DNA of 31,825 nucleotides. Source: an uncultured Thermotogaceae bacterium (lineage in GTDB: Bacteria; Thermotogota; Thermotogae; Petrotogales; Kosmotogaceae). Made by a program: the position numbers and the translations under genes. The DNA is taken from positions 6,510-38,334 of the forward strand of contig CAZGZM010000001.1 of the NCBI GenBank assembly GCA_964529955.1. The letters are read 5' to 3'. The notes under the pieces are model-generated. The model saw only the letters and a list, made by a program, of their open reading frames with translations. It had not been told where the DNA came from and did no database searches. Shown here piece by piece: positions 5,685 through 31,825 of this stretch (the stretch's first letter is position 1; every line of letters starts with the position of its first letter).

Positions 5685-5779
5685 TTTTATCATCTCCTTA
5701 ATATAAAAAAAATTTAAATACAGTAATAAATCTTCTTACAGGTTATATATTCATTTTAGCATAATGAGTTATATAAATA

Positions 5780-5803
5780 AAAACACCCGCTTTTCAGCGG
5801 GGG
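5780..5803 (-). terminator. Probable intrinsic terminator
   Basis: CCCGC (5786-5790) / GCGGG (5797-5801) stem with a T run downstream on the minus strand, just past the 5829 stop. Confidence 0.5.
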
Positions 5804-5828
5804 CTCTTCTGTTTTAATATTTATCTAT

Positions 5829-6647
5829 TTATTCAATTCCGGCATATTCTGCTAATGTGTTCATTAGTATTTCTAATGGTTCTATGCCTTCAACATTTTT
5901 ACCTAATCTTCCTAAAAGATTTCCTAAAGCGAATTGATTAACATTTCCTACTACATTTCCTTTAAATCCCTGAACATTCATTCGAGGACCCTCTGCACCA
6001 ATATTTCCCTGTTGTCTTCCAATTTGATTCACAGGTATATTAGCTTTATTTCCGAGCTGTTGCCCTGTTATTTGGTTCTTAACTGTGCTTTGCACCTTAC
6101 TCTTAATTTGACTCTGTAGTTTTTCTGCTTGCTCAGGATCCATATTTTTCATCTTTTCCCATGCTTGTGGATTGTTTTCCTTAATATTATTCTTCATTGT
6201 TTCCACTTGTTTTTTTACTTGCTCTTGTACTCTATCAGAGATTTTATCAGTAAAATACTCCTGAATTCCCTCAACCTGGCTCACTGTTAGTGTTTCCTTT
6301 AATACATCCAAAATACCTGTTCTGTCTTCAAAATCTTCCTTTGCACCGTCTCTGAATTCTTCCACCGCTGCCTTTGCAGCTTCAATTTCTTCTTCTGTTC
6401 CATCTAGTAGTGCTGATTTATAATTTTCAAGTAGTTGGAATAATTCTGATTCATGAGCATCTCTTTCTTCAATTTGTTCGTTTAGGGCATTGTAAATTGT
6501 TGTTGCTTGCTCCTGAGTTAATCCTATACTGTTAAAAATATCTAAAAGGGCTATTTCACCAGTTAATTCTGCTACTTCTACCGGTGTTGCCAGTGTAAAT
6601 GTTCCTATTGAAACTACTGCTAATAATAACACTAAAAATTTCTTCAT
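5829..6647 (-). CDS. Exported helical protein with two LTxxQ motifs (Spy/CpxP-like?) and a Gln/Asn-rich region
   Basis: Signal peptide MKKFLVLLLAVVSIGTFTLA; LTQEQ (aa 43-47) and LTVSQ (aa 120-124); acidic coiled-coil character; RBS GGAGGTGG. Family assignment is tentative. Confidence 0.6.
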   Translation of the reverse strand: MKKFLVLLLAVVSIGTFTLATPVEVAELTGEIALLDIFNSIGLTQEQATTIYNALNEQIEERDAHESELFQLLENYKSALLDGTEEEIEAAKAAVEEFRDGAKEDFEDRTGILDVLKETLTVSQVEGIQEYFTDKISDRVQEQVKKQVETMKNNIKENNPQAWEKMKNMDPEQAEKLQSQIKSKVQSTVKNQITGQQLGNKANIPVNQIGRQQGNIGAEGPRMNVQGFKGNVVGNVNQFALGNLLGRLGKNVEGIEPLEILMNTLAEYAGIE

Positions 6648-9642: not shown

Positions 9643-10383
9643 TTATTTATTAAACACTAAAAAAATCAGATCATCAACTGATTTGTCTTTTTTCAAATAA
9701 AAACCACTTTTTAATCCGAGCTCAATTAATGAATGATTATCCTGTTTTTTATTTTCCCACATAATTCCATAATTCGTATCAATATAATTATCTTTAACCT
9801 TTACTTGAATAGAAACAATAAAAATATCTTCTTTTTCAGTTACTCTTTTGGGTATTTTCAGGTCCCAAATATAAAAGAATCCTTCGTTCTTCAAAACTCT
9901 ATACGCTTCTTTAAATACTTTCATAATTGTCTCATCTGACATATACATTAAAGAAAAAAAAGCAGTACAGTTATGAAAGCTATTATCATTAAATGTCATG
10001 TCAGTAGCATCCATAACTATTTTTTTACATTTGCAGTTTTCTGCTTCTTCCAATTCCTCTTTACTTTTATCTATAACTGTAACTAATTCTCCAAAGCGTT
10101 GCCCAATAATTCCTTCGCCTCCACCTCCAATATCTAAAATGTTTCCACTAATTTGCATATCATCAAGATTCAAAGAAATAATACCCTGGTGAAAAAACCT
10201 ACTTTTATTTTCTAATCTATATAACAAAAAATCATTCTTTCTCAGAAAAATTTTTCCATTTTCATTAATAAAATTAATTTCATTTTTTTTAATAGGTGAT
10301 TTCAGTCTTTCAAAATTGAAATCAGGAAAGATTATCTTCAATTCTTCTAAAGAATAATACCTAAAGTTATTTATTATTTTCAT
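9643..10383 (-). CDS. Class I SAM-dependent methyltransferase with about 60 aa N-terminal extension
   Basis: ILDIGGGGEG (motif I), VIDKS, MDATDMTFNDNSF, EAYRVLKNEG; RBS AGGGGG. Confidence 0.85.
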   Translation of the reverse strand: MKIINNFRYYSLEELKIIFPDFNFERLKSPIKKNEINFINENGKIFLRKNDFLLYRLENKSRFFHQGIISLNLDDMQISGNILDIGGGGEGIIGQRFGELVTVIDKSKEELEEAENCKCKKIVMDATDMTFNDNSFHNCTAFFSLMYMSDETIMKVFKEAYRVLKNEGFFYIWDLKIPKRVTEKEDIFIVSIQVKVKDNYIDTNYGIMWENKKQDNHSLIELGLKSGFYLKKDKSVDDLIFLVFNK

Positions 10384-11866: not shown

Positions 11867-12658
11867 TTAAATTTTCAAAGAATATAAATAAACTTTGTTT
11901 AACTCCTCAAAACCTATTTTCTTATATAGATTTATCCCCATTACTGAAGATTCCAAAACTGCTGATTTAAGTCCTCTCTTTTTTATTTGTTTTAACATAT
12001 ACGTTGTAAGAGAAAATCCATATCCCTTTTTCCTACATTCAGGAACTGTAGATATCCAATATAATCCTGCGACACCTCCCTCAATGTATAATAATCCTGT
12101 ACATTGAGGACAATTTTTATAGTAACCAACAAATAATTCCTGTTTTGGAGAAGCATATCTCATCTTTTGAATAAAGTTTTTATAAAGATACTCATATTTC
12201 TTTTCTATTTCAAAACCTTTGAAAGAAGCTTCTCCAAAATCATCAAGTTCTTTTTTAGATGAAACTCTTTTAATAACTAGATCCTCATCAGGTGCTAGTT
12301 CTACAATATCATTCTCCAAATTGAATCCCATTGCAGAAGAAGCTAACTTCACATGCATATTATTCTCTTCAAAAAGCTGTTTCAATTCCTCAGTAAGATT
12401 ATTTTCAAGTACCCACCATATAAATGGTTTCTTCACGGCTTCATAGTAAGAAATTGTTTCCTTTACCAGTGGCTTAATCCTTTCTCTTGAAGCTCTTGTT
12501 GAAAACACCCAATTAAGCTCAGGTATTGGCACCTCAGTTGAAATACAAACAATAGGATCAAGTTCAACAACATTGCTTCCGGTGCTTTTTCCCCAAAAAA
12601 CACCACTTTCAATCATATTTAGATCAAGAGATTTTATCAATCTTTGTTTTTCAATCAT
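11867..12658 (-). CDS. GNAT-family N-acetyltransferase
   Basis: C-terminal AGLYWISTVPECRKKGYG (acetyl-CoA motif A) and GINLYKKIGF (motif B). Confidence 0.9.
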   Translation of the reverse strand: MIEKQRLIKSLDLNMIESGVFWGKSTGSNVVELDPIVCISTEVPIPELNWVFSTRASRERIKPLVKETISYYEAVKKPFIWWVLENNLTEELKQLFEENNMHVKLASSAMGFNLENDIVELAPDEDLVIKRVSSKKELDDFGEASFKGFEIEKKYEYLYKNFIQKMRYASPKQELFVGYYKNCPQCTGLLYIEGGVAGLYWISTVPECRKKGYGFSLTTYMLKQIKKRGLKSAVLESSVMGINLYKKIGFEELNKVYLYSLKI

Positions 12659-17340: not shown

Positions 17341-18744
17341 TTATTTAGGTAATTTTATAAATAGATCTTTATTCCTTTCATATAGGTTTCTATAAACTTT
17401 GAAGAGCTTTGTATATTTTTGATGTATCATCATATCAGGTTGATAGGTTTTTTTTATTGAAATAAGTCTATCAGCTGTTTGGGATATTTCCTCATTTGAA
17501 TCATTTGCTATTGCATAAATAGCAGTTCCAAGCAGTTCAGATTCAGATATATCAGGCAGTTCAATTTCTCTACCCAAGATATCAGCTTTCAGCTGGTTGA
17601 ATAATTCACTTTGGGTTTGCCCTCCAGTCATTCTGATTTTATTTATTTTTAATCCATTCTCCTCCATTCTTTCAATTATGTCTCTAATTGAAAAGGAAAT
17701 ACCTTCCATTATAGAAACAAATAAATCTTCTCTATTTGAATCGAGATTCAGCCCAAAAAATATACCCTTTGCATCAGGGTTCCAGTAAGGGCTTCTTTCA
17801 CCACTCAAATAGGGCAAAAAAACTATTCCTGTTGGTCTTTTAACAGATTTCAGATTTTTTAAATTTTTTACCTGACTGTGTAATACTTCTTCTGTAAACC
17901 AGTCCAAAGCTCTACCTGATGTTTTCATAATTCCACTTATTTTCCATAAATTATTTAAAAAATATGGAGTAGTTATCAATCCTTTAATATCCCTTTTAAT
18001 ATCACTGCATAGTGTTACTCCCTGAGAAGTGCCTCCTCTATCACATAGAAATCCACTTTTAACAGTTCCTGTACCGACAAGTCCTGCTGCAAAATCCGGA
18101 GAACCAGAAACAACTTTAATACTTTTAGGTAAAGAAAGCTCCTCTGCAACATTTTTTTGGATTAGGCCAACTGTTTTTGATGATTCAACGAGCTCAGGAA
18201 GGATAAAATGATCATTAAGTTTCTCACTTTCTATGAGTTCTTTATTCCATGGCAAATAACCAAACTGTTTAAAGGACATATTTACAATTCTTCCCGTTAA
18301 TCTGTACGCAATATAATCTGCGGGTTGTATTAAATAATTTTTATATCCTACATTATCCTTTACACATTGAAGTTTTGAGATAACAGAAGCAAATTGGGGA
18401 TCTAAACCCTTATTTATCAATTTCGTCTGATACTCTTCTCCTCTACTATCAAGCCATGTAATAGCGTTTAAGGAAATATCTCCGCTATCTCTTATTCCAA
18501 TAATTGTGGGTCCCTGACCGGTAATACTCAATGAATGAATTCTTTTCCTTTTATTTTCAGGAACTCTACCAATTATTTTTTTAAAGGATTTCCACCATGT
18601 TTGAGGATTTATTTCAGAATTTCCATTTAAATTTTTTCCAACCTGTCTTTCCTGAAAAAAATCAGACATATTTCCATTTATGTCAAAAAGAGCGATTTTC
18701 ACATTAGTTGTTCCTATATCAATAGCTAAATAAAGTTTATACAA
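17341..18744 (-). CDS. FGGY-family carbohydrate kinase (xylulokinase-like)
   Basis: LAIDIGTTNVK, ITWLDSRG, ADYIAYRLTG, GGTS, FLPYLSGERSPYWNP, MTGG, ELLGTAI. Confidence 0.9.
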   Translation of the reverse strand: MYKLYLAIDIGTTNVKIALFDINGNMSDFFQERQVGKNLNGNSEINPQTWWKSFKKIIGRVPENKRKRIHSLSITGQGPTIIGIRDSGDISLNAITWLDSRGEEYQTKLINKGLDPQFASVISKLQCVKDNVGYKNYLIQPADYIAYRLTGRIVNMSFKQFGYLPWNKELIESEKLNDHFILPELVESSKTVGLIQKNVAEELSLPKSIKVVSGSPDFAAGLVGTGTVKSGFLCDRGGTSQGVTLCSDIKRDIKGLITTPYFLNNLWKISGIMKTSGRALDWFTEEVLHSQVKNLKNLKSVKRPTGIVFLPYLSGERSPYWNPDAKGIFFGLNLDSNREDLFVSIMEGISFSIRDIIERMEENGLKINKIRMTGGQTQSELFNQLKADILGREIELPDISESELLGTAIYAIANDSNEEISQTADRLISIKKTYQPDMMIHQKYTKLFKVYRNLYERNKDLFIKLPK

Positions 18745-19591
18745 CTCCTTTGTCTCCCTTTCGTTTTGAATTAATAATATATTCGAAATTACTGTAACTC
18801 TTCTTAAATTTGTCCTTTCCCATTTCTATTAATTTTAAAAACAAAGTATCCACAGCTAATAGCTGAATATACCTTGTTAAAATTCCTCCCTCAGGTAGAA
18901 CTTTAGCTCTTGGATAAACTGGAAGTTTAATATCAGACTTTTCAAGAATCTTCGAGTTTGGTGGAGCCATGCTTATAATTTTTGCTCCAGATTCCTTTGC
19001 ATACTTCATTGAATCAAGTAAGTCTGATGATGAATGACTGCTGGATATAACAATAGCTGTACTTTTTTCATCCATCTGATAAGCTGAAAGACTTTGCATA
19101 AATGGATTGTCAAAAAAGTTAGTCTGAAAACCTAGAAGTTTCATCTTAATAAAGAGATCATGTCCTGCAACACCATCAAAACCATAAGCCATAATATCAA
19201 TCATTTTACTATTTAATATATATTCACAAGCCTTTTCTATACTTTCAGGAAACAACTGTAGTAACGAATATTCAAGATTTTCATTTATAACATCTAGAAG
19301 ATTTCTGGATATTTTAGAAACTTTATCTAAATTAAACTTCATAGATTCAACCATTTCCAATTCCTGGGCAAGGGCTATTTTTAAATCTCTAAATCCTTTG
19401 AAATTTAATTTTTTACAAAAATCAACAACCGTTGAAGGAGCTGTATTGGTTTTTTGTGACAATTCCTTAATAGTTATATTTATTACATATCTTGGATTTT
19501 TTATTATATATTTTGCTATCCTAGCCTGAGCAGCTTTTAAATATGGCAACTCATCCTTTAATCTTTGAAAGAAACTGCATTTGCTAAGCAT
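18737..19591 (-). CDS. MurR/RpiR-family transcriptional regulator
   Basis: N-terminal HTH (IAKYII, STVVDFCKKLNFKGFRDLK) plus SIS domain (IVISSS, AKESGAKII). Confidence 0.9.
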   Translation of the reverse strand: MLSKCSFFQRLKDELPYLKAAQARIAKYIIKNPRYVINITIKELSQKTNTAPSTVVDFCKKLNFKGFRDLKIALAQELEMVESMKFNLDKVSKISRNLLDVINENLEYSLLQLFPESIEKACEYILNSKMIDIMAYGFDGVAGHDLFIKMKLLGFQTNFFDNPFMQSLSAYQMDEKSTAIVISSSHSSSDLLDSMKYAKESGAKIISMAPPNSKILEKSDIKLPVYPRAKVLPEGGILTRYIQLLAVDTLFLKLIEMGKDKFKKSYSNFEYIINSKRKGDKGVV

Positions 19592-20471
19592 TTACATTTT
19601 TCCTTTTAGCTGAATAGAAAATCATTACTGCAAGAGTAACCAAAAAAGGTACTGTCAGTAAAAGTTTAGGAGAAATATCCGTGGTTGCCTGAAATAAATT
19701 AGATAGAGCTGAAGCTGCACCGAAAATAACTGAAGCAATTAAAACTCCCACCGGGTTTCCTCTTCCCAACACAACTGCTACCAGGGCAATCCAGCCTCTT
19801 CCATTTGTCATTCCCCCAACAAATGTTTTTAAGGGAAGAGAGAGAGCAGCTCCACCAATTCCAGCAAAAAAACCGCTTATTAAAAAAGAAATAAATCTTT
19901 GTTTATATACTGATATTCCCACACTTTCAGAAGCTCTATAATTTTTTCCAACAGATCTGAGATGGTACCCATAGGGTGTTTTGAATATTACTATAAAGCA
20001 GATTATTACTGCTAAAAATACCAGATAGTCAAGAATATCATATCCGCTAATTAAATCTCCGATAATCGGTATGTTTTCAATTCCTGGAATATTTATCTCA
20101 GACATTTTAGGAGCATTCTGAAAATAAACTGTACCTTTAGAACCACATAGATTATAGGAAAGAAAAACTGTAATTCCTGCAGCAAATAAGTTTGTAGCTA
20201 ATCCAACTACAAAAACGTTAGCCTTTAAATTCAAGCTTACATATCCCATTACTGCTGCAAGTACCATAGAAAAACCTATTCCAGATAAAATTCCTAATAA
20301 TATACTTCCAGTATTTGCTGCAACATAAATTGAGGAAAATGCTGAAGCTAACATCATACCCTCTAATCCAATATTAAGCATTCCACCTAAATCAGTGAAT
20401 AAGCCTCCAAGTGCAGCCCATAGTATTGGAGTCATCATAGCAATTGTTGTATGTAAAAAATCACCAATCAT
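19584..20471 (-). CDS. ABC transporter permease (nucleoside/monosaccharide CUT2 type)
   Basis: GGMLNIGLEGMML, TPYGYHLRSVG, GRGWIALVAVVLG. Confidence 0.92.
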   Translation of the reverse strand: MIGDFLHTTIAMMTPILWAALGGLFTDLGGMLNIGLEGMMLASAFSSIYVAANTGSILLGILSGIGFSMVLAAVMGYVSLNLKANVFVVGLATNLFAAGITVFLSYNLCGSKGTVYFQNAPKMSEINIPGIENIPIIGDLISGYDILDYLVFLAVIICFIVIFKTPYGYHLRSVGKNYRASESVGISVYKQRFISFLISGFFAGIGGAALSLPLKTFVGGMTNGRGWIALVAVVLGRGNPVGVLIASVIFGAASALSNLFQATTDISPKLLLTVPFLVTLAVMIFYSAKRKNVNA

Positions 20472-21505
20472 GCTTCAGCCTCCTTTTTTCTTCTCTTTCC
20501 AATAAATGAAACTAGCCCTTCAGCTGTAACGAGATAGAAAATAACTGATTGAATTATTCTCGCTACTTCTGGAGTTATATCAGACATTAACGAGCCTACA
20601 TTTGCTCCACTTTCAAGAAAAGCAAAGAATAATGCTGCTGGTATAACTAACAAAGGGTGATTTCTTGCTATTAATGCAACAGCTATACCATTCCAGCCAT
20701 ATCCGATTGAATAACCCCTTATCATTCTCCCGTGAATTCCTAAATTATCTATTATTCCTGCTAATCCCGCCAAACTCCCACTTAAAAACATAGAAAGTAT
20801 TATTACTTTCTTTACAGGTATTCCAGAATAATTGGAAAACCTTCGATTTCTTCCTGTAATTGTTATTTCATATCCAGTCGTACTTTTTTTATAAATGAAA
20901 TAGAAAACTATTATCACCGATATAGCAATAAAAAGCCCCGCATGCAAATTAGATGGAGATAAGATTTTTGGAAGCATAAAATTTGAATTAATATATGGAG
21001 AAGCGGCTAATCCAGCGGTTGGATCATTGAAGGGTCCTTCAAGAAAATAATCAACAACATACACCAGGGTATAACTTACTAAAAGAGAAGAAATCAACTC
21101 GTTTACTTCCCATTTTGCCTTTAACCATCCAGATAAACCAGCAATTATTCCACCTACAATAGCTGAAACTATTATAGAAATAACTATTACAATTATTGCT
21201 GGAAATCCAGACATCTGCACAGCTAAAAAGGTTCCTACGAGAGCTCCAAAATACAATTGTCCTTCTAATCCGAGATTAAAGGTAGATGCGGAAAAAGCTA
21301 AACTCGCTGCAAGCCCCGTTAGCATAAGTGGAATTGAAGTTGCTATCATATTTCCAAAGAAATAAGTATTACTGAAAGGACCTAAAAAAAACTGTTTAAT
21401 TGCATTTGCAGGCTCACTGCTTGTAACTACTATTGCTATTACTCCTATTACAAGTGCAATTATTATTGTGATTGCTGTTTTTATTAGTCCGTTTATCTTT
21501 TGCAT
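20468..21505 (-). CDS. ABC transporter permease (nucleoside/monosaccharide CUT2 type)
   Basis: FNLGLEGQLYFG, VNELISSLL, GYEITITG, GYGWNGIAVALIAR. Confidence 0.92.
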   Translation of the reverse strand: MQKINGLIKTAITIIIALVIGVIAIVVTSSEPANAIKQFFLGPFSNTYFFGNMIATSIPLMLTGLAASLAFSASTFNLGLEGQLYFGALVGTFLAVQMSGFPAIIVIVISIIVSAIVGGIIAGLSGWLKAKWEVNELISSLLVSYTLVYVVDYFLEGPFNDPTAGLAASPYINSNFMLPKILSPSNLHAGLFIAISVIIVFYFIYKKSTTGYEITITGRNRRFSNYSGIPVKKVIILSMFLSGSLAGLAGIIDNLGIHGRMIRGYSIGYGWNGIAVALIARNHPLLVIPAALFFAFLESGANVGSLMSDITPEVARIIQSVIFYLVTAEGLVSFIGKRRKKEAEA

Positions 21506-23061
21506 TATGAATCACATTCCTTTGCCTTTTTTCTCTTTAAATGTAATCCCATCATATATTCACCAATTTCAGCCTTTGATAAACCGCTGCAGTTATCAAA
21601 CTTTTTAACTATTTCTCCTTCATAAATGACAAGAATTCTATCAGATAAATACATTATTTCATCCAGATTTCCAGAAACTAAAAAAATTGCCCTTCCCGAA
21701 TTCCTTATTTTGACTAACTGATCGTAGACAAATTTCTGTGATCTGATATCTAAACCCCATGTGGGTTCACATACAATAAGAAACTGCGGGTTTGAAGAGA
21801 ATTCTCTTGATATAATTAATTTTTGAATATTTCCACCTGATAGCATTCCAACCATCGAATTAATACTTGATGCTTTTATGTCATATTCCTTTATTAGTTC
21901 CTTGGAAATTTTTACTGTGTTATTTTTATTTATCCAACCTCTTTTTGACATAGCTGTTTTATAATATTTAGTAGATATTTCATTTTGAAGAATACTTGAT
22001 TGGGGCGATGATCCTTCCATAACTCTATCTTCTGGAATATAGCTTATTCCTTCTTCTCTTCTTTTTCGTGTTGAAAAATTTGAAATATCCTTTTTATTGA
22101 GAAAAACACATCCCTTTTCTATTTTTCTCAAACCGACTATAGCTTCAACCAATTCCTGTTGCCCATTGCCATCTACTCCTGCTAATCCAACAATTTCTCC
22201 GGCTTTTATACTCAAATCTATTCCTTTCACTTTAATATATTGATCTTCAATATCTTTAACAAAGAGTTTGTTTACGGATACAATTTCATCTCCTATCTCA
22301 TCTGCACATTTTATTCTTTCAAAGGTTATGTTTTCACCAACCATAAGACATGAAATCTTCTGAATACTCATATCCTTTATATCTCCGTTAAAAACAGTTT
22401 CTCCATTTCTCAAAACAGTTACTTGATCAGATATTTCTCTAACTTCCTCAAGTTTATGACTAATAAAAATAATTGTTTTTCCCTGTTCTTTAAGCATTCT
22501 TACCGTTTTGAACAATTCTTCCACTTCCTGTTCTGTTAAAACAGAAGTGGGTTCATCAAGAGCAATTATTTCTGCTCCTCTATATAGTGTTCTTAAAATT
22601 TCTACCTTCTGTTTTTGACCTATTGATAAACTTCCCACCCTTGTACAGGGGTTAAGATCGAGTCCTGATTTACTTGAGAGTTCTGATACTTCATCTTGAA
22701 TTTTTTTAAAATCAATGAGCCCGTGCTTTTTTCTTTTTTCTATCCCCAAAGAAATGTTTTCAGCAACTGTGAAATCGTCCACCAATTTAAAATGTTGATG
22801 AACCATTCCTATTCCTAATTCAAAGGCTTTTTTTGCATTATTTATTTCTTCAACTTTTCCTCTTAATAAAATTTCACCGTTATTCATTTTTTCAATTCCA
22901 CAAAGAATTTTCATTAAGGTAGTTTTTCCTGCTCCATTTTCCCCAACTAGTGCATGGACCTTTCCCTTTTCTAATTTTAAGTTCGCCTTTTTTAAAGCAA
23001 CAACATTGTTTACTGAGTATACTTTGTGAACATCTTTCATCTCAAGAATATAATCCTGCAT
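21505..23061 (-). CDS. ABC transporter ATP-binding protein, tandem ATPase (CUT2 type)
   Basis: Walker A GENGAGKTT, IGMVHQHF, LDEPT, ISHKL; second domain GVDGNGQ, YIPEDR, LSGGNIQK. Confidence 0.95.
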   Translation of the reverse strand: MQDYILEMKDVHKVYSVNNVVALKKANLKLEKGKVHALVGENGAGKTTLMKILCGIEKMNNGEILLRGKVEEINNAKKAFELGIGMVHQHFKLVDDFTVAENISLGIEKRKKHGLIDFKKIQDEVSELSSKSGLDLNPCTRVGSLSIGQKQKVEILRTLYRGAEIIALDEPTSVLTEQEVEELFKTVRMLKEQGKTIIFISHKLEEVREISDQVTVLRNGETVFNGDIKDMSIQKISCLMVGENITFERIKCADEIGDEIVSVNKLFVKDIEDQYIKVKGIDLSIKAGEIVGLAGVDGNGQQELVEAIVGLRKIEKGCVFLNKKDISNFSTRKRREEGISYIPEDRVMEGSSPQSSILQNEISTKYYKTAMSKRGWINKNNTVKISKELIKEYDIKASSINSMVGMLSGGNIQKLIISREFSSNPQFLIVCEPTWGLDIRSQKFVYDQLVKIRNSGRAIFLVSGNLDEIMYLSDRILVIYEGEIVKKFDNCSGLSKAEIGEYMMGLHLKRKKAKECDS

Positions 23062-23090
23062 TTAAAATCCCCCGATTTCAGTTTAGAAGA

Positions 23091-23117
23091 AAGCCCACTC
23101 ATTGATAGAGCAGGCTT
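23091..23117 (-). promoter_or_regulatory. Intercistronic stem-loop after the substrate-binding protein gene (likely mRNA stabiliser or partial terminator)
   Basis: Minus-strand RNA AAGCCUGCUC-UAUCAAU-GAGUGGGCUU forms 10 bp including two G-U pairs. Such hairpins are common at this position in ABC operons. Confidence 0.55.
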
Positions 23118-23127
23118 AGAGGTTACT

Positions 23128-24123
23128 TTATTTTAATGGATCAACTTCTCCACTTTTCAAAGATTCAAATATCTTCAACATTTCGTCTCTAATATCCTGA
23201 GGTACGTTCTTTATATAGTCAGGATCATCAAATGTAAATCCGATTGCCCCTTCCTTAATACCCCATCTTTCAGATGTTCCAAATGGAAGTTCTCCTTTGC
23301 AAGCTCTAACAAGAACATTCTTCATTGCGATATCAGCATTCTTTAATGTACATGCAAGAATAGTATCTGGAGCCATATTTATATAGTTTGAATCAACTCC
23401 AATTACGTAATTTCCTGAATTTCCAGCTGCTTGAATTGCTCCTACTCCAGTTCCACCAGCAACTGTCAAGATAATATCTACTCCCTGACTCAACTGAGCT
23501 TGAGATAATTCCTCCCCTTTATTAGGATCAGACCAGCTTCCAGCAGCGGAAAATACTACATCGATATTCTCATTTATTGATTTTGCTCCATTTTCGTATG
23601 CAGGCTTCATTCTATCAGTCATAGCTGGGTATATATCTCCTGCTAATAATCCAACTTTTAAATCTTCATTTGCACCTGGCATATCACTTATTGTAACCAA
23701 TCCTGCAAAGGAACCAGCTAAATATGTCATTTCTTCATCTTTAAATCCAAGAGAAAAAACATTTGGCAAATCAGCTGCTATACCATCTAAAAGAGCAAGT
23801 TTCTGATTTGGGAACATCTTTGCAACTTTTTCTACACTTCTCGGCATTCCTTCAGTGAAAGTAACCACTAAATCATATTGTCCGGTTGAAGCAAGACTTA
23901 TTACATTTGGTTCCCAGTTTGCGAAGTTATAGCCACCTTCAACAACTTTAAGATTAAATCCTGCTTCTTCAGCAGCAGCTTTCGCACCATTAACCATCAT
24001 TTCGTATATCGGATTACCTCCGACTTCTCCTGTAACCATTATTGCAACTGAATATGAAAATCCCAACGAAACAATTAATAACAAACAAAATACTAAAAAC
24101 ACTAACTTTTTCACATATTTCAC
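23128..24123 (-). CDS. BMP (PnrA-like) family ABC substrate-binding protein
   Basis: GFKDEEMTYLAG, SAAGSWSDPNKG, GVDIILTVAGGTGVGAIQAA, YVIGVDSN, KEGAIG; cleavable signal without a lipobox. Confidence 0.9.
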   Translation of the reverse strand: MKYVKKLVFLVFCLLLIVSLGFSYSVAIMVTGEVGGNPIYEMMVNGAKAAAEEAGFNLKVVEGGYNFANWEPNVISLASTGQYDLVVTFTEGMPRSVEKVAKMFPNQKLALLDGIAADLPNVFSLGFKDEEMTYLAGSFAGLVTISDMPGANEDLKVGLLAGDIYPAMTDRMKPAYENGAKSINENIDVVFSAAGSWSDPNKGEELSQAQLSQGVDIILTVAGGTGVGAIQAAGNSGNYVIGVDSNYINMAPDTILACTLKNADIAMKNVLVRACKGELPFGTSERWGIKEGAIGFTFDDPDYIKNVPQDIRDEMLKIFESLKSGEVDPLK

Positions 24124-24144
24124 CCCCTGGTTTTTTAGATATTA

Positions 24145-24930
24145 TTATAGTTCGCTCATAGCTTCTTTAACTGATGCTCCATCATGTATGATAATCTTTA
24201 GAGCTTTTGTCATCTTTCCCGGTTCAGAATATCCCCATATATTCCTACCTATCGCCACTCCACAAGCTCCTGAATCAACTGCATTCTTTACCATAACAAG
24301 AAGATCTTCGGGGTTATCAGATTTTGATCCTCCTAGAACTACTATAGGTTTAAAAACACCTTTACTCATTTCTTTAAATTTATCCATATCCTTTGGGTAT
24401 TCTGTTTTAACAATATCTGCTCCGATTTCTACTGCAATTCTAGCAGACATGGAAATGTTTTCTGAAGTATGGAGGCTTTTATTAAAACCTCCCGGCAAAG
24501 CTTCGGCAAGAACAGGAACTCCCCAATCATGAGCCTCAGCGCAAATATTTGCTAAGTAAGTAAGGGTTTCGTTCTCATAATCAGTTCCAGGCAGCCCCAT
24601 ACAGCCAACTGCGTCAGCACCTAATTTTAGTGCTTCTTCAACAGAAAACAGCTGACTGTAGTTCTTTTTTCCCTCTCTTATCATTGTTATACCACCATCT
24701 ATTCTCAATACTATTCCACAATCCTTTAATATACTCCAGTAATTCTTAACTATTCCATATGTCGTTAAAAATGCATCTGCACCGTTTTTAACAATTTCTG
24801 ATAAAACTTTTCCTGTATTATTCAAAGCTGGAAATACATTCATTGTGCTTCCATGATCCATAGCAACAATCAAACTTTTACCATCTTCTTTAAAAATCCT
24901 ATGCATTCTTTTCATACTAAAAATGTTCAT
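24145..24930 (-). CDS. DhnA-type class I aldolase (FbaB/LsrF/ADH-synthase family)
   Basis: LIVAMDHG, VEEALKLGADAV, WGVPVLAE, ARIAVEIGADIVKTEY (Schiff-base Lys), VVLGG, GVAIGRNIW. Confidence 0.9.
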   Translation of the reverse strand: MNIFSMKRMHRIFKEDGKSLIVAMDHGSTMNVFPALNNTGKVLSEIVKNGADAFLTTYGIVKNYWSILKDCGIVLRIDGGITMIREGKKNYSQLFSVEEALKLGADAVGCMGLPGTDYENETLTYLANICAEAHDWGVPVLAEALPGGFNKSLHTSENISMSARIAVEIGADIVKTEYPKDMDKFKEMSKGVFKPIVVLGGSKSDNPEDLLVMVKNAVDSGACGVAIGRNIWGYSEPGKMTKALKIIIHDGASVKEAMSEL

Positions 24931-24945
24931 TAATCTATTCCTCCT

Positions 24946-25971
24946 TTAAAATAATACTACCGTTCTCTGTTCATGTCCTGCCGGAACAAGTGATAATTCA
25001 TTACCCAGTTCTTCTAGCGTAATCGTTTTTGTCACCAGGCATTTTAAATCCTCATGAAATGATGAAATCAAATTTGTTGCCTGCCTGAAATCCTCAATCG
25101 TTCTTCCTTCTGTGCCTGTTATTTTTACTTCTGAATAATGAATTTTATTGCAATCAATGTTCAAATCTCCGGTTGGATGCATAGAAGTATATAGAACGAT
25201 CGTGCCTACTTTTCTAACGTATTCTATTGTTTTATTTACAACGTCAATTACTGGTGCAGTTATGAATACAGCATCAAAACCAAATCCTTCGTTGATTTCA
25301 GGAAGAATTTCTTCGATTTCTTCAGGTTTAATAGCCTTAAAACCCATCTTCGATATAAAATCTCTCCTATTATCCTCAGGATCACTTATTACTGCCTTTG
25401 CTCCTCTTTTTTTTGCTAAGAAGGCATGCAGAATTCCCATTGTTCCTCCACCAATTATAAGTACCGAATCACCAAATTGTAAATCAGCTTTCTTAATACT
25501 GTGGAGACAACAGGAAAGAGGTTCAGTAAGAGCAGCCACTTTCAATGGGGTATCCCTTAATAATTTAAAAGCTTGTTTCTCCTTTACAATAGCATATTCA
25601 GAAAATCCTCCAGCGATTAAAAACTTTTCTTCAATTCTTCTTCCCTTTCTTGCATTTATACATAGATTATCCATTCCTCTGACACAGTAATAACATACTC
25701 CACATCTGTTAATAGTATCAAGAGTAACAAAATCACCCTCTTTTACTTTTTTTACTTTTTCTCCAATTTTCACTACTTCTCCAGCTGCTTCATGACCACC
25801 TATCATAGGAGTAGGAACATTTATCTTTCCTGTAAAAATTCTTCTATCTGTTGTACAAACACCACAGCTTTTCACCTTGACTAAAATTTCATTTTTCTTT
25901 AATTCAGGCATTTGAATTTCTTCGATTTCTGATTGTCCCACTTCCTTAATGATTAATGCTTTGCTCTTCAA
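24946..25971 (-). CDS. Zinc-dependent medium-chain dehydrogenase (sorbitol/L-iditol 2-dehydrogenase-like)
   Basis: CGVCTTD, GHEAAGEV, structural-Zn CGVCYYC...NLC, EPLSCCLH, Rossmann IIGGGTMG; TTG start after GGGAGTGAT. Confidence 0.9.
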   Translation of the reverse strand: MKSKALIIKEVGQSEIEEIQMPELKKNEILVKVKSCGVCTTDRRIFTGKINVPTPMIGGHEAAGEVVKIGEKVKKVKEGDFVTLDTINRCGVCYYCVRGMDNLCINARKGRRIEEKFLIAGGFSEYAIVKEKQAFKLLRDTPLKVAALTEPLSCCLHSIKKADLQFGDSVLIIGGGTMGILHAFLAKKRGAKAVISDPEDNRRDFISKMGFKAIKPEEIEEILPEINEGFGFDAVFITAPVIDVVNKTIEYVRKVGTIVLYTSMHPTGDLNIDCNKIHYSEVKITGTEGRTIEDFRQATNLISSFHEDLKCLVTKTITLEELGNELSLVPAGHEQRTVVLF

Positions 25972-26172: not shown

Positions 26173-28125
26173 TTAATGCAGATAATTATAATTTTTATTT
26201 CCAGGCAAATCTAAATACCAATCCTGCTTACGCTGTCCTTTAGAATTTACCCATTCATTATAATTATTATAAGCTTTACTTATTTCAACATCATCCGCAG
26301 GGTAATCAAATGTCTCTGGAAGATTCAAACCCCATGGAAATTCATCTGTAGTCTTATACATATGATTTGTTCCTAAAATCGACCCATCGTCCTCTGAACC
26401 AAAATAAGGTGTCCAGATTAGATCTGTCGGTTGATAACCAGGAAGATGAATTTCTCTTCCCCTTTCTCCGTTAGCAATAATGAAAGGATTATATGGAGCA
26501 TAACCTATTTCATTTCTTGTTACAGCTCTACTGAAATTAATTGTGACGAATACTTCGATTTCTCCATCGGGATCATAATGATTATTTGCAATATCAAAAA
26601 CGATAATTACAGCCTTTGTCTGCCTTGATTCAACTCCATTTTCTTCCATATAAATTTTATCATCCCCTGTTGCCTGATATCTGTTTTCACTGCCTATAAC
26701 CGATTCAACAGAGTCTGGAGATATATTATTAAATTGAAATCCAAAACCGTTTTTCATACTTGCAACTATGGCCTTCACTTTAAATGTTCCTGTTACTTTC
26801 ACTATATCGTTATCCTTATTTAAAAACTCTTCGAAATTGTAATCGATAATAAGATCATTAAAATCATAATCTCCTCTATAAGGCCAGAGATCTTCAAAAG
26901 CTAAACTTGCAAACTGTCCTTTTCCTGGTGTACTTATGGAAGAAACTATATTATTATCGTAGGGTTCAGCATCAATAATATCTGGTATTCCATCATCGTC
27001 AGAATCTAAAGGTGGTTCATCTGTAGTCTTTACTACTTCTGTTTTTGCTATGGCGGTTATAGGATTAGATGTTACATAAAAGACAGCATCATTGAAATCA
27101 TTATCTCCTGCCGGTCTTAATAAATCTTCAAAGGAAAGAATAAGTTTATCTTCTTCTTCATAATTCAATAAAACTGTGTGATGTTTATCATTAGTATTGG
27201 ATTCTGGATTAAGCTTACTATCAGAAAAGAATTTATTGAAGCCTCCTCCTACCACATCCTGTTTAGTATTATATCCATTTGTGATTATTACCCATCCTAT
27301 AGAAGTTCCGGGATCGAATTCTCCGATATTTACCTTATCACCAGATGTCAGACCTCCACCACTCCCTTTATAAGAAACATTTGGAAATATTAAAGTTATA
27401 TCTTCATCATTGACAACATCCGGTGCACCATCAGCAGTATTATAAGTATAGAAACCTAATGAATTTTTATATCCCGCTCCTTCATGTATGAAAGTTACAA
27501 ATACATTTGCATGTTCAATAATATCAAGATTAGTTTTTGCAGAATCTGCAATATAATGAGGATTATAATCAGGAACAGGTTCTTTTTCAGGCAGAGAATT
27601 GTTAATCGTAGTTAATAAATCGGAGCTGATTAAATCTCTCTCCATTAGATAATCAGGAACACCATTTGTATCCCAGTTTCCAATTTTTTTATAGCTCATT
27701 GTATAACTTGAATCCATAAATATAATCTCGTCATCTTCTTCAACTACAACTGGATCTGAATAATCTAGAAAAAGTATGCTATCCTCTATAGCTACTAATA
27801 CTTCACTCAATCCTCCGATAAATCCTCTTTTTACGTACAACTGGTCAACATAAGTTGGAAGTGTTAGATAAGTAACTAAATTTCCATCTTCATTGGTTAC
27901 ACCAGAAAAATTTATTTTTGCATACTTCTCGCCTGTTTCAGGATGATTTTCTATTTGGTATATTTCAATTAAAACATTTGGTATTTGGGCTTTTATATCC
28001 ACCTTTACTTTTTTGGTAGTTTCATAATTAAAATCATTTAAATCATTCTCATTGTTTGGTGTCACACATCCAGTTATCACCATAGCTAAAATAACAATTG
28101 ATATTAAATATAAAAATTTTTTCAT
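26173..28125 (-). CDS. LruC domain-containing lipoprotein (DUF4114 + DUF4842/LruC C-terminal domain)
   Basis: Lipobox ITG|C; LSFEDLLRPAGDNDFNDAVF and LAFEDLWPYRGDYDFNDLIIDY repeats; YNPFII...RGREIHLPGYQPT; PWGLNLP; Ca-binding-like DSDDDGIPDIID. Confidence 0.85.
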   Translation of the reverse strand: MKKFLYLISIVILAMVITGCVTPNNENDLNDFNYETTKKVKVDIKAQIPNVLIEIYQIENHPETGEKYAKINFSGVTNEDGNLVTYLTLPTYVDQLYVKRGFIGGLSEVLVAIEDSILFLDYSDPVVVEEDDEIIFMDSSYTMSYKKIGNWDTNGVPDYLMERDLISSDLLTTINNSLPEKEPVPDYNPHYIADSAKTNLDIIEHANVFVTFIHEGAGYKNSLGFYTYNTADGAPDVVNDEDITLIFPNVSYKGSGGGLTSGDKVNIGEFDPGTSIGWVIITNGYNTKQDVVGGGFNKFFSDSKLNPESNTNDKHHTVLLNYEEEDKLILSFEDLLRPAGDNDFNDAVFYVTSNPITAIAKTEVVKTTDEPPLDSDDDGIPDIIDAEPYDNNIVSSISTPGKGQFASLAFEDLWPYRGDYDFNDLIIDYNFEEFLNKDNDIVKVTGTFKVKAIVASMKNGFGFQFNNISPDSVESVIGSENRYQATGDDKIYMEENGVESRQTKAVIIVFDIANNHYDPDGEIEVFVTINFSRAVTRNEIGYAPYNPFIIANGERGREIHLPGYQPTDLIWTPYFGSEDDGSILGTNHMYKTTDEFPWGLNLPETFDYPADDVEISKAYNNYNEWVNSKGQRKQDWYLDLPGNKNYNYLH

Positions 28126-28162
28126 TCAATCACTCTCCTTTTGTTCATTCTTAAAGAACTAT

Positions 28163-28178
28163 AGCAATATTATGCCAA
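28163..28178 (-). promoter_or_regulatory. Sigma-54-like motif copy 1 (probable LruC gene promoter)
   Basis: Minus strand TTGGCATA-ATA-TTGCT; GG-N9-GC instead of canonical GG-N10-GC. Predicted start near 28152, 27 nt above the ATG. Confidence 0.55.
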
Positions 28179-28190
28179 AAAAAATGAGGA

Positions 28191-28214
28191 AACCCCTCTA
28201 GGGCAAGAGGGGTT
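28191..28214 (-). terminator. Strong hairpin between motif copies 2 and 1
   Basis: AACCCCTCT / AGAGGGGTT 9-bp stem. The T8 run follows 6 nt later on the minus strand, so this is not a textbook terminator. Confidence 0.55.
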
Positions 28215-28306
28215 AGGGGTAAATCAGTAGCAAAAAAATGAGGTTACTTTCTGTAGTATCTCTAGTCTTGAAAGATTTTTAGACTAAAGGTCGATTAATT
28301 AGTAGA

Positions 28307-28322
28307 TGCAACTTCGTGCCAA
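28307..28322 (-). promoter_or_regulatory. Sigma-54-like motif copy 2
   Basis: Minus strand TTGGCACG-AAG-TTGCA; same N9 spacing. Confidence 0.55.
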
Positions 28323-28335
28323 TATTAAAATCTAT

Positions 28336-28370
28336 AAAAAAAATCCTCTTCCCGGGGTGTGGAAGAGGAT
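28336..28370 (-). terminator. Intrinsic terminator between motif copies 3 and 2
   Basis: ATCCTCTTCC (28343-28352) / GGAAGAGGAT (28361-28370) perfect 10-bp stem, directly followed by a T run on the minus strand. Confidence 0.8.
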
Positions 28371-28432
28371 AAGTTTATAAAGGGGGGTATCTTATAAAAA
28401 AGTTTCTGTTAGTTCGTTCTCAGTTATTTATA

Positions 28433-28448
28433 TGCAATGGTATGCCAA
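28433..28448 (-). promoter_or_regulatory. Sigma-54-like motif copy 3
   Basis: Minus strand TTGGCATA-CCA-TTGCA; same N9 spacing. Confidence 0.55.
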
Positions 28449-28523
28449 CTTTATTATTTTTTCTTTTTCTATTTTATGTAAAATGATATAATATGCATAT
28501 TTAAACAATTATGGAGGAACACT

Positions 28524-29192
28524 ATGAATATAATTGAATCAATTAAAACAAGACATTCTACAAGATCATTTATTGAAGAAAGAATATCGAGCAGCAAATT
28601 ACGTGAAATCAATTCCATATTAAGTGATGTACAACCAATACAAAAAGAGAATATTGTTTGGACTATAGAAAAGGATGATAAAAGAACAGGAAGATTTTAT
28701 GCTCAGGTTGACAATGATTGGGAATCATATTGTTCTTATGGTTTTCAGGGGGAACAAATAATTTTAAAACTCACTCAGTTAGAATTTGATACTCTTTGGA
28801 AAGCTCTTGGAGGTCATAAACCTGCTGAAATACTTTTTGGCCACGGAAAGAAAAGAAGCTTGAAGGCTTCTTTTTCTGGTATATTTACAGGAAATGGAAG
28901 AAGAAAATCTCTTGAATCATTTTTGATGAAAGATGTTTCAAACATTTCCCCCCTTGCAGTTGAATGCTTTGAACTTTGTAGATTGTCTCCCTCAGGTATG
29001 AATAAGCAACCATGGAAATTTGATGAAGTGGAAGGAAACATTGTTATTGAAGTAACAGGAAGATCCTTGCTCAACGCTGTTGACTTTGGAATAGTGATTT
29101 CACACGCATACTTATATCTAAAGGAAGCGGGGAAAGAGATTTCACTTTTTTTTGAAAACGATTACAAATGCATAATAAAACTGGAGGATTAA
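28524..29192 (+). CDS. Nitroreductase-family protein (TM1586-like)
   Basis: IKTRHSTRSF, YGFQGEQIILKLTQLEFDTLW, RLSPSGMNKQPWKF, VDFGIVISH; RBS GGAGG. Confidence 0.85.
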   Translation: MNIIESIKTRHSTRSFIEERISSSKLREINSILSDVQPIQKENIVWTIEKDDKRTGRFYAQVDNDWESYCSYGFQGEQIILKLTQLEFDTLWKALGGHKPAEILFGHGKKRSLKASFSGIFTGNGRRKSLESFLMKDVSNISPLAVECFELCRLSPSGMNKQPWKFDEVEGNIVIEVTGRSLLNAVDFGIVISHAYLYLKEAGKEISLFFENDYKCIIKLED

Positions 29193-31544: not shown

Positions 31545-31723
31545 AATTCCACCTCCTATTATTATATCTAATTTGTATAAAAATTGTATCAAAAAGAATT
31601 AAATAGACAAACAAAAATCAAACCTCATTCCTTATAAAATACTTATCAGTATAATAGTTTTCCTTCGGTAAATTAAATATTAAAATGTATAATTCAATAA
31701 ACAATCAAAAAGGGGTGTAAATA

Positions 31724-31825
31724 ATGAATAAAAGAATTTTTCTATTTACAATGCTAGTTATTATTATAATTTTTATTTTTTCAGGTTGTTTTATATTCAG
31801 AGAAAACAATAACTATGTTGCCTGG
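31724..31825 (+). CDS. Putative lipoprotein, N-terminus only (3'-truncated by the window)
   Basis: MNKRIFLFTMLVIIIIFIFSGCFIFRENNNYVAW; lipobox FSG|C; RBS AGGGGTG. Confidence 0.65.
   Translation, partial: MNKRIFLFTMLVIIIIFIFSGCFIFRENNNYVAW

Follow-up and report, generated by a model that had tools for sequence, protein, structure and literature searches.

The window analysed here is a 31,825-nt stretch of genomic DNA from an uncultured member of the Thermotogota, with a G+C content of 31.8%, whose sequence matches a marine-sediment metagenome contig in ENA (L014) and marine-sediment runs. For an ABC ATPase conserved in the window, the best named relatives belong to Kosmotoga, Kosmotogaceae, and Petrotogales, and a cluster 75% identical to it contains a protein labeled "Kosmotogales bacterium"; the host is thus one of the Kosmotogales. 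On its minus strand lies lruC, preceded by three copies of a -24/-12-type promoter motif (P1, P2, and P3) and two predicted non-coding units, in the tandem order P1-sRNA1-terminator T1, a 13-nt spacer, P2-unit 2 (about 118 nt, with hairpin T2), and P3-lruC. The features of this array are as follows.

26173 to 28125, minus strand: lruC, encoding a 650-aa lipoprotein with DUF4114, DUF4842, and LruC domains, downstream of the array
28163 to 28178, minus strand: P3, the third motif copy (TTGGCATAATATTGCT), 37 nt upstream of the start codon of lruC
28179 to 28296, minus strand: unit 2, a conserved non-coding unit with a hairpin near its 5' end, CCUCAUUUUUU twice, the tract ACCCCUAACCCCUCU, and another hairpin (28191-28214)
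28307 to 28322, minus strand: P2, the second motif copy (TTGGCACGAAGTTGCA), predicted +1 at 28296
28323 to 28335, minus strand: the spacer between T1 and P2, 13 nt, fast-evolving
28336 to 28422, minus strand: candidate sRNA1, 87 nt, with an A-rich unstructured 5' part, a weak AU hairpin round a C6 tract, and an intrinsic terminator
28433 to 28448, minus strand: P1, a -24/-12-type motif (TTGGCATACCATTGCA, GG-N9-GC), predicted +1 at 28422

The divergent upstream neighbor of the array is a gene for a TM1586-type nitroreductase. A cluster at 17341-25971 on the minus strand codes for a Bmp-family binding protein, an ABC ATPase, two permeases, an FGGY kinase, a DeoC-type aldolase, and a zinc alcohol dehydrogenase, i.e., for sugar or nucleoside uptake and catabolism, and at least its promoter-proximal half (alcohol dehydrogenase to first permease) has the same gene order in the relative L015. 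On the plus strand, a lipoprotein-like gene (MNKRIFLFTMLVIIIIIFIFSGC...) with a GGGGTG ribosome-binding site (RBS) starts at 31725 and runs off the window end (31711-31825).

Sequence and predicted fold of sRNA1

A first-pass annotation had proposed a small RNA with two C-rich loops at 28336-28422, and the minus-strand sequence that it quoted turned out to be an exact reading of the window. It had also described the stretch as free of ATG-initiated ORFs and closed by a 10-bp terminator. Both descriptions agreed with our analysis: the minus strand of 28336-28422 contains no ORF of at least 20 aa that begins with ATG, GTG, or TTG, and the terminator stem, with five GC pairs and the loop ACACCCCG, was located within 28343-28370 and is followed by U8. 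The minimum free energy of sRNA1 was -17.2 kcal/mol (z = -3.2), and an equal fold was obtained in 1 of 200 shuffles. The predicted fold comprises hairpin 1 (positions 25-32 with 42-49, the loop holding AUACCCCCC) and the terminator stem, while positions 1-24 are A-rich and free of predicted structure. The parts of sRNA1 are the following.

28399 to 28420, minus strand: the 5' part, positions 3-24 (AGAACGAACUAACAGAAACUUU), single-stranded by prediction
28374 to 28398, minus strand: hairpin 1, positions 25-49, with the loop GAUACCCCCC including the C6 tract at 28382-28387
28336 to 28370, minus strand: terminator T1, stem AUCCUCUUCC/GGAAGAGGAU, loop ACACCCCG, U8 tail

Taken alone, hairpin 1 contributes only -1.3 kcal/mol at 37°C. 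In the window sequence the T1 loop contains CCCC. Of the 28 minus-strand runs of at least four C's in the 31.8-kb window, 4 are located within the 244 nt of 28179-28422.

A putative promoter motif in three copies

The 16-base P1 motif ends 10 nt upstream of sRNA1, and its predicted +1 lies 12 nt past the C of TTGC. The pattern TTGGCAYR-N3-TTGCW is present in the whole window in three exact copies, all on the minus strand; three or more copies were found in none of 100 shuffles. The sigma-54 promoter consensus is TGGCACG-N4-TTGC(T/A) (PMC9765219). All three copies have the TGGCAC and TTGCW elements with their GG and GC dinucleotides, but the distance between the latter is 9 nt (GG-N9-GC) instead of the 10 nt (GG-N10-GC) of the consensus. 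The short N3 spacing was found in every copy, that is, in the three of the window, the three of the related locus L016, and one each in L018/L019 (2675-2690 of L018) and L028 (9943-9958), the loci of the LruC homologue with 58% identity. A scan of the window with the canonically spaced pattern gave no convincing site, and a literature search found no sigma-54 promoter written with the short spacing. At enterobacterial promoters, a one-base change of the -24/-12 spacing abolishes activity.

Counterparts of P3 were detected upstream of lruC in L018, L028, L020, L026, L027, and L029 to L031. In the six distant loci among these (L020, L026, L027, L029, L030, and L031) the motif is canonical (TGGCAY-N5-TTGCW) and stands 25-60 nt before the lruC ATG, and in five of the six an NtrC-type activator gene (Response_reg, Sigma54_activat, HTH_8) adjoins lruC. 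Since P3 occupies the place equivalent to that of the canonical motifs of these lruC homologues, it corresponds in position to a sigma-54 promoter. Sigma-54 is present in some Thermotogae (PMC3162934), and Kosmotoga olearia has a gene for it, Kole_1408 (PMC5674127). No gene for an enhancer-binding activator (Sigma54_activat) was found among the window ORFs scanned. As to gene neighborhoods, the flanks of the lruC homologues in L020, L026, L029, L030, and L031 repeatedly contain genes for an NtrC-type activator, a stand-alone response regulator, and glycosyltransferase/polysaccharide functions, none of which adjoins lruC in the window.

The genome of L028 is rich in sulfatases and giant cadherin-like proteins and does not look like one of the Thermotogota; the short motif occurs there too, so the short form travels with this lruC subclade. 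Between L018 and L028, and likewise between the window lineages, its cores are kept while the spacer letters differ, which is the pattern of a used promoter. The earlier claim of sigma-54-driven transcription thus stands as far as the position of the motif is concerned, which is that of the sigma-54 promoters of lruC homologues, and is weakened by a spacer 1 bp too short. We regard the short-spaced motif as a putative sigma-54 promoter.

Conservation across lineages

Four further lineages were recovered from other metagenomes, i.e., B (run X7, L017, and the flanks of L016), C (X3 and X4), D (X16), and E (X15 and X17), the last covering unit 2 only. Their sequences were rebuilt from difference tables, and the lruC gene of L016 with its flanks served as a proxy for lineage B in the divergence estimates. 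Between the window and L016, lruC was 85.9% identical, with 44% of the four-fold degenerate sites different, and the lruC 5'UTR was 53% identical (47% changed), so that the neutral divergence is high. For sRNA1 of lineage B (run X7), 7 of 87 sites were changed.

Summed over the lineages, variable sites numbered 11 of 85 in sRNA1 and 11 of 114 in unit 2. The two predicted RNAs together had 22 variable sites of 199, versus 24 of 47 in the untranscribed non-core positions (promoter spacers, positions -1 to -10, the 13-nt stretch separating T1 from P2, and the tail that follows T2), corresponding to an odds ratio of 0.12 for transcribed versus untranscribed non-core positions (Fisher p = 9e-9). 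The promoter cores had no variable site among 22. In lineages B, C, and D the hexamer and pentamer of the P1 core were unchanged while all five spacer letters varied; the P2 core was also unchanged, and one of its spacer letters varied. The conserved block of both units extends from about the predicted +1 (+3 in sRNA1) to the terminator tail. Positions -1 to -10 and the spacer past the U-tail vary freely, the spacer between T1 and P2 being changed at 6 of 13 positions in lineage B and by four substitutions and a 3-nt deletion in lineage D. These comparisons show that purifying selection is restricted to the promoter cores and the predicted transcript. The coincidence of the conserved blocks with the predicted boundaries is the strongest evidence that the selected objects are RNAs having those ends.

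Within sRNA1, positions 3-24 had no substitution in any lineage and one single-base insertion in each of two lineages. The three independent indels found in sRNA1 are all 1 nt long and lie inside the conserved part, which argues against coding. The T1 stem was unchanged in all five sequences, with U7-8 in every lineage, and the T1 loop varied at four of its eight positions (A63C, C64A, C66U, and G70A), its CCCC becoming UCCC in one lineage. The C6 tract with its flanks (GAUACCCCCCUUUAU) had no substitution and one extra C, in L016 only. The outer stem of hairpin 1 is broken in lineage B (A48U) and in lineage D (U27A and deletion of 49), each time uncompensated. None of the 18 pairs in the covariation test was changed on both sides, hairpin 1 showing one unpaired cell and one gap; the covariation that had been suggested as a check of the structure thus gave no compensatory change for any helix in the lineages available.

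The two C-rich loops therefore fared differently from the way they were proposed. The C6 tract is kept, apart from its length, while the hairpin supposed to expose it is weak and suffers the breaks just described; a more fitting description of hairpin 1 is a conserved C6 tract within AU-rich surroundings of little structure. A CCCC is indeed present in the terminator loop, but half of that loop varies. The best-conserved part of sRNA1 is, in these lineages, the predicted single-stranded 5' 24 nt, which was not among the seeds put forward earlier.

In unit 2 the tract ACCCCUAACCCCUCU was invariant, and the 5' hairpin kept its stems while its loop was changed at up to five positions, including a 1-nt deletion in B and D. 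The U8 tail of T2 was found in the window lineage only, the U-tract being missing in B, D, and L016.

Over 28185-28411, L016 is identical to the window, and its flanks are of the lineage B type. L017 encodes a LruC protein identical to that of L016 and has a diverged unit 2 (L016 395-665 versus L017 1-125), from which it follows that L016 is a mosaic, by assembly or recombination. The reading of its identity to the window as extreme constraint was dropped, and the block was left out of the evidence.

The intergenic stretch between P1 and the start of the divergent nitroreductase gene (28449-28523) had 1 to 3 changes per 75 nt in lineages B and C and in L016 and 8 in D. It contains the palindrome ATATGCATAT at 28490-28499 and may include the promoter of the nitroreductase gene as well as sites for an activator.

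Occurrence of the cassette

The closest LruC homologues are sparse, at 94% identity (same species group), then 58%, then 49% or less. L015, a syntenic Kosmotogales relative with neighbor proteins 63-75% identical, is without lruC and both non-coding units: at its positions 5763-6000, the counterpart of window 26173-28448, the alcohol dehydrogenase and nitroreductase genes are directly adjacent. The cassette of about 2.3 kb is thus a lineage-specific gain or loss.

No sRNA1 homologue was found beyond lineages about 85-95% identical by Rfam, a JGI metagenome scan, or blastn and a covariance model applied to the fetched loci. In Rfam, the whole window gave no hit at gathering score, and the sub-threshold hits were terminator-driven, with at most 25.6 bits against thresholds of at least 50. 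The JGI scan for the promoter plus ACCCCC plus T7 returned five matches, all unrelated, and blastn and the covariance model R1 recovered only the window, L014, and L016 among the fetched loci. A marginal match of sRNA1 in L028 proved to be the antisense of a gene's Shine-Dalgarno (SD) region and was discarded. The candidate sRNA1 is thus an orphan with no homologue in the searched collections beyond the species-group level.

Pairing with initiation regions

The first-pass annotation had pointed to several G-rich RBSs in the window. All four sites that it named are real, and several others exist. They include AGGGGG before 9643-10383, CAGGGGG before 11867-12658, CAGGGG-GTG at 23128-24123, and AAGGGGTG before the ATG at 31725. 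When the C-rich parts were tested against 31 initiation regions of the window, as had been recommended, the pairing was no better than that of shuffled oligonucleotides: 20-72% of the latter equaled or surpassed the best duplex formed by the 5' part, by loop 1, by the T1 loop, or by the C-rich part of unit 2. Since any C-rich oligonucleotide pairs with the frequent GGGGG-type SDs, the observation about the RBSs is true but non-discriminating. The lruC leader and the 5' region of the nitroreductase gene were also considered as partners of sRNA1, and neither pairing was significant against shuffles.

The antisense of sRNA1 positions 22-50 reads AAAGGGGGG, 6 nt, and AUA AAA AAG UUU, a layout typical of the initiation regions of this genome. 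Its likeness to the initiation region of lruC (20 of 28 matches) was not significant (p = 0.14), and other genes scored as high, likewise without significance. Of the earlier picture, a small non-coding transcription unit with a function has reasonable support; the trans-acting anti-SD sRNA is a plausible hypothesis that the pairing predictions do not back.

Transcripts in sediment metatranscriptomes

lruC mRNA was detected in six sediment metatranscriptomes from two studies, with more than 80% of the sampled words present in two of them, so lruC is expressed in situ. In the five metatranscriptomes inspected, three of which had lruC mRNA over the examined stretch, no contig covered 28278-28560, and no indexed RNA run contained words of 28325-28450. 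This absence of sRNA1 from the RNA contigs is weak counter-evidence, given that these are assembled contigs and that libraries usually lose RNAs shorter than 100 nt. A 144-nt piece in run X6 (28134-28277) crosses T2 and P3, as would be expected if P2 is active and T2 is a leaky terminator. Together with the loss of the T2 U-tract outside the window lineage, this piece indicates that unit 2 is probably a long lruC leader; a leaky sRNA would be the other form it could take.

Alternative explanations for sRNA1

The same RNA piece bears on the first alternative, in which P1 and P2 would be extra lruC promoters, T1 and T2 conditional terminators, and the short RNA a by-product of regulated read-through. 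In its favor, P2 transcripts of lineages B and D and of L016, whose T2 has no U-tract, would probably enter lruC, and all three promoters point toward that gene. It has to contend with a strong and invariant T1 whose U-tract is kept in every lineage, with the failure to find an alternative antiterminator pairing, and with the lack of RNA contigs over 28278-28560 and the free evolution of the spacer between T1 and P2. We consider such a cis-acting leader or attenuator unlikely.

Another explanation accepts sRNA1 as a real RNA, one that titrates an RNA-binding protein or another RNA and does not block RBSs. The strongest conservation falls in the unstructured A-rich 5' part and in the AU-rich region before the terminator, which we take to resemble Hfq-type binding modules, and no specific mRNA target was found among the window regions, the lruC leader, and the nitroreductase 5' region. 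Against a role as a protein-binding or sponge RNA speak the lack of repeated protein-binding motifs and the single copy, and we hold it to be improbable to a clearly greater degree than a leader.

Much the same low probability attaches to a function at the DNA level, in which the region would serve P2 and P3 as architectural DNA and as a place for activator (enhancer) sites, while the P1 RNA would have no function. The stretch lies 30-115 bp upstream of P2, the usual place of sigma-54 activator binding, and the intergenic part upstream of P1 is conserved as well. However, the three upstream regions share no motif (a common activator site upstream of P1, P2, and P3 was sought as a 9-mer with at most two mismatches and rejected), 85 nt are conserved without interruption, with limits exactly at the predicted +1 and at the last base of the U-tail, and invariant stems with loops of varying letters and length suit RNA hairpins better than protein-binding dyads.

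Least probable of all is the absence of any function, i.e., a duplicated promoter and terminator or the relic of a plus-strand gene or type I toxin, conserved in appearance through recombination or mosaic assembly: L016 is indeed a mosaic, window-identical over 28185-28411 between flanks of the lineage B type, and the antisense of positions 22-50 does look like an SD and start, with I-K-K-F-L-L-V encoded and a 30-codon hydrophobic ORF following in the window, but the same constraint pattern is seen in B, C, and D, three lineages that are not mosaics, the plus-strand ORF has an ATA/ATT start and no predicted promoter and is broken in B and C, and the likeness of unit 1 to the lruC 5'UTR past the motif is not significant (p = 0.37), so that an origin of unit 1 from a duplicated lruC promoter and 5'UTR was rejected. 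The frame in question, opposite sRNA1 at 28394-28486 on the plus strand, consists of the SD-like AAAGGGGGG, 6 nt, and 30 ATA-initiated hydrophobic codons (IKKFLLVRSQLFICNGMPTLLFFLFLFYVK); its candidacy as a type I toxin was abandoned because it is frameshifted in lineage B and, in lineage C, ends at a stop in codon 10.

DISCUSSION

We infer that sRNA1 is transcribed and terminated as predicted. The segment from P1 to T1 (28448-28336, minus strand) would then be an independent, selectively maintained non-coding gene whose RNA is about 85-88 nt long, and it is likely that sRNA1 is a functional RNA gene. It would form part of a cassette of about 2.3 kb (P1-sRNA1, P2-unit 2, and P3-lruC) in which one -24/-12-type motif is used three times. 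Because the same motif precedes sRNA1 and lruC, a single signal would govern the production of sRNA1 and of the LruC lipoprotein, and sRNA1 is probably an sRNA gene specific to this lineage and regulated together with lruC. Its conserved parts without predicted pairing, namely the 24 A-rich nt at the 5' end and the C6 tract between AU flanks, may serve for pairing in trans. We tentatively favor a trans-acting, base-pairing sRNA co-induced with lruC that would use the 5' part, the C6 tract, or both to reach initiation regions in other parts of the genome, and rate this as possible, at somewhat less than an even chance. Action in trans would fall on ribosome-binding sites; the specific anti-SD mechanism is plausible, at a rather low probability.

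Blocking of SD sequences by C-rich unpaired motifs is an established sRNA mechanism, and for the C-rich tracts of Firmicutes sRNAs, pairing with Shine-Dalgarno sequences rich in G has been either proposed or demonstrated (PMC2790875). sRNA1 resembles RsaE/RoxS, the other Firmicutes sRNAs with C-rich motifs, and the loops of RNAIII in its length class (about 90-115 nt), its intrinsic terminator, and its unpaired C-rich tracts (PMC2790875). Unlike them, it belongs to the phylum Thermotogota, and it has no sequence or covariance-model similarity to them (RsaE, RF01820). Its promoter is of the -24/-12 type, whereas those of RsaE and RoxS are sigma-A promoters under redox regulators, and its predicted target pairing, in contrast to theirs, is no better than that of shuffles.

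Besides Qrr of Vibrio, sigma-54-dependent sRNAs include CrcZ, GlmY, and NrsZ. Like Qrr, sRNA1 is by prediction a short terminated RNA right behind a -24/-12-type promoter, and its synthesis would require an active enhancer-binding activator. It differs from Qrr in having no Rfam match (RF00378), a spacer 1 bp short, no activator gene in the window, and no multi-copy family. Tandem sRNA genes beside a co-regulated gene are known from PrrF1/PrrF2, OmrA/OmrB, and AbcR1/AbcR2. The two tandem non-coding units described here are comparable to these pairs, each standing behind its own copy of one promoter motif, but sRNA1 and unit 2 are not detectably similar past the promoter, and unit 2 is more like the lruC leader. 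RepG of Helicobacter pylori binds a G-rich tract of an mRNA leader through its C/U-rich terminator loop. The terminator loop of sRNA1 likewise contains CCCC; in contrast to RepG, it is the most variable part of the RNA, and the C tract that does not vary precedes the terminator.

More unusual is the short spacing of the -24/-12 motif documented here. The motif is conserved, duplicated, and replaces canonical sigma-54 promoters at orthologous positions. That the short-spaced class is functional, that the tandem array drives two non-coding RNAs and lruC as one sigma-54-type module, and that sRNA1 is a new anti-translation-initiation sRNA of the Thermotogota is, as one combined reading, rather unlikely. 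Should sigma-54 read the short motif, the supposedly rigid -24/-12 spacing could shift in nature.

To our knowledge, the regulatory RNAs of the Thermotogota have been little studied, and the host lineage of sRNA1 is uncultured. With an sRNA placed on the promoter type of a surface lipoprotein gene, an envelope-related response of the sigma-54 type would gain a post-transcriptional branch in these bacteria.
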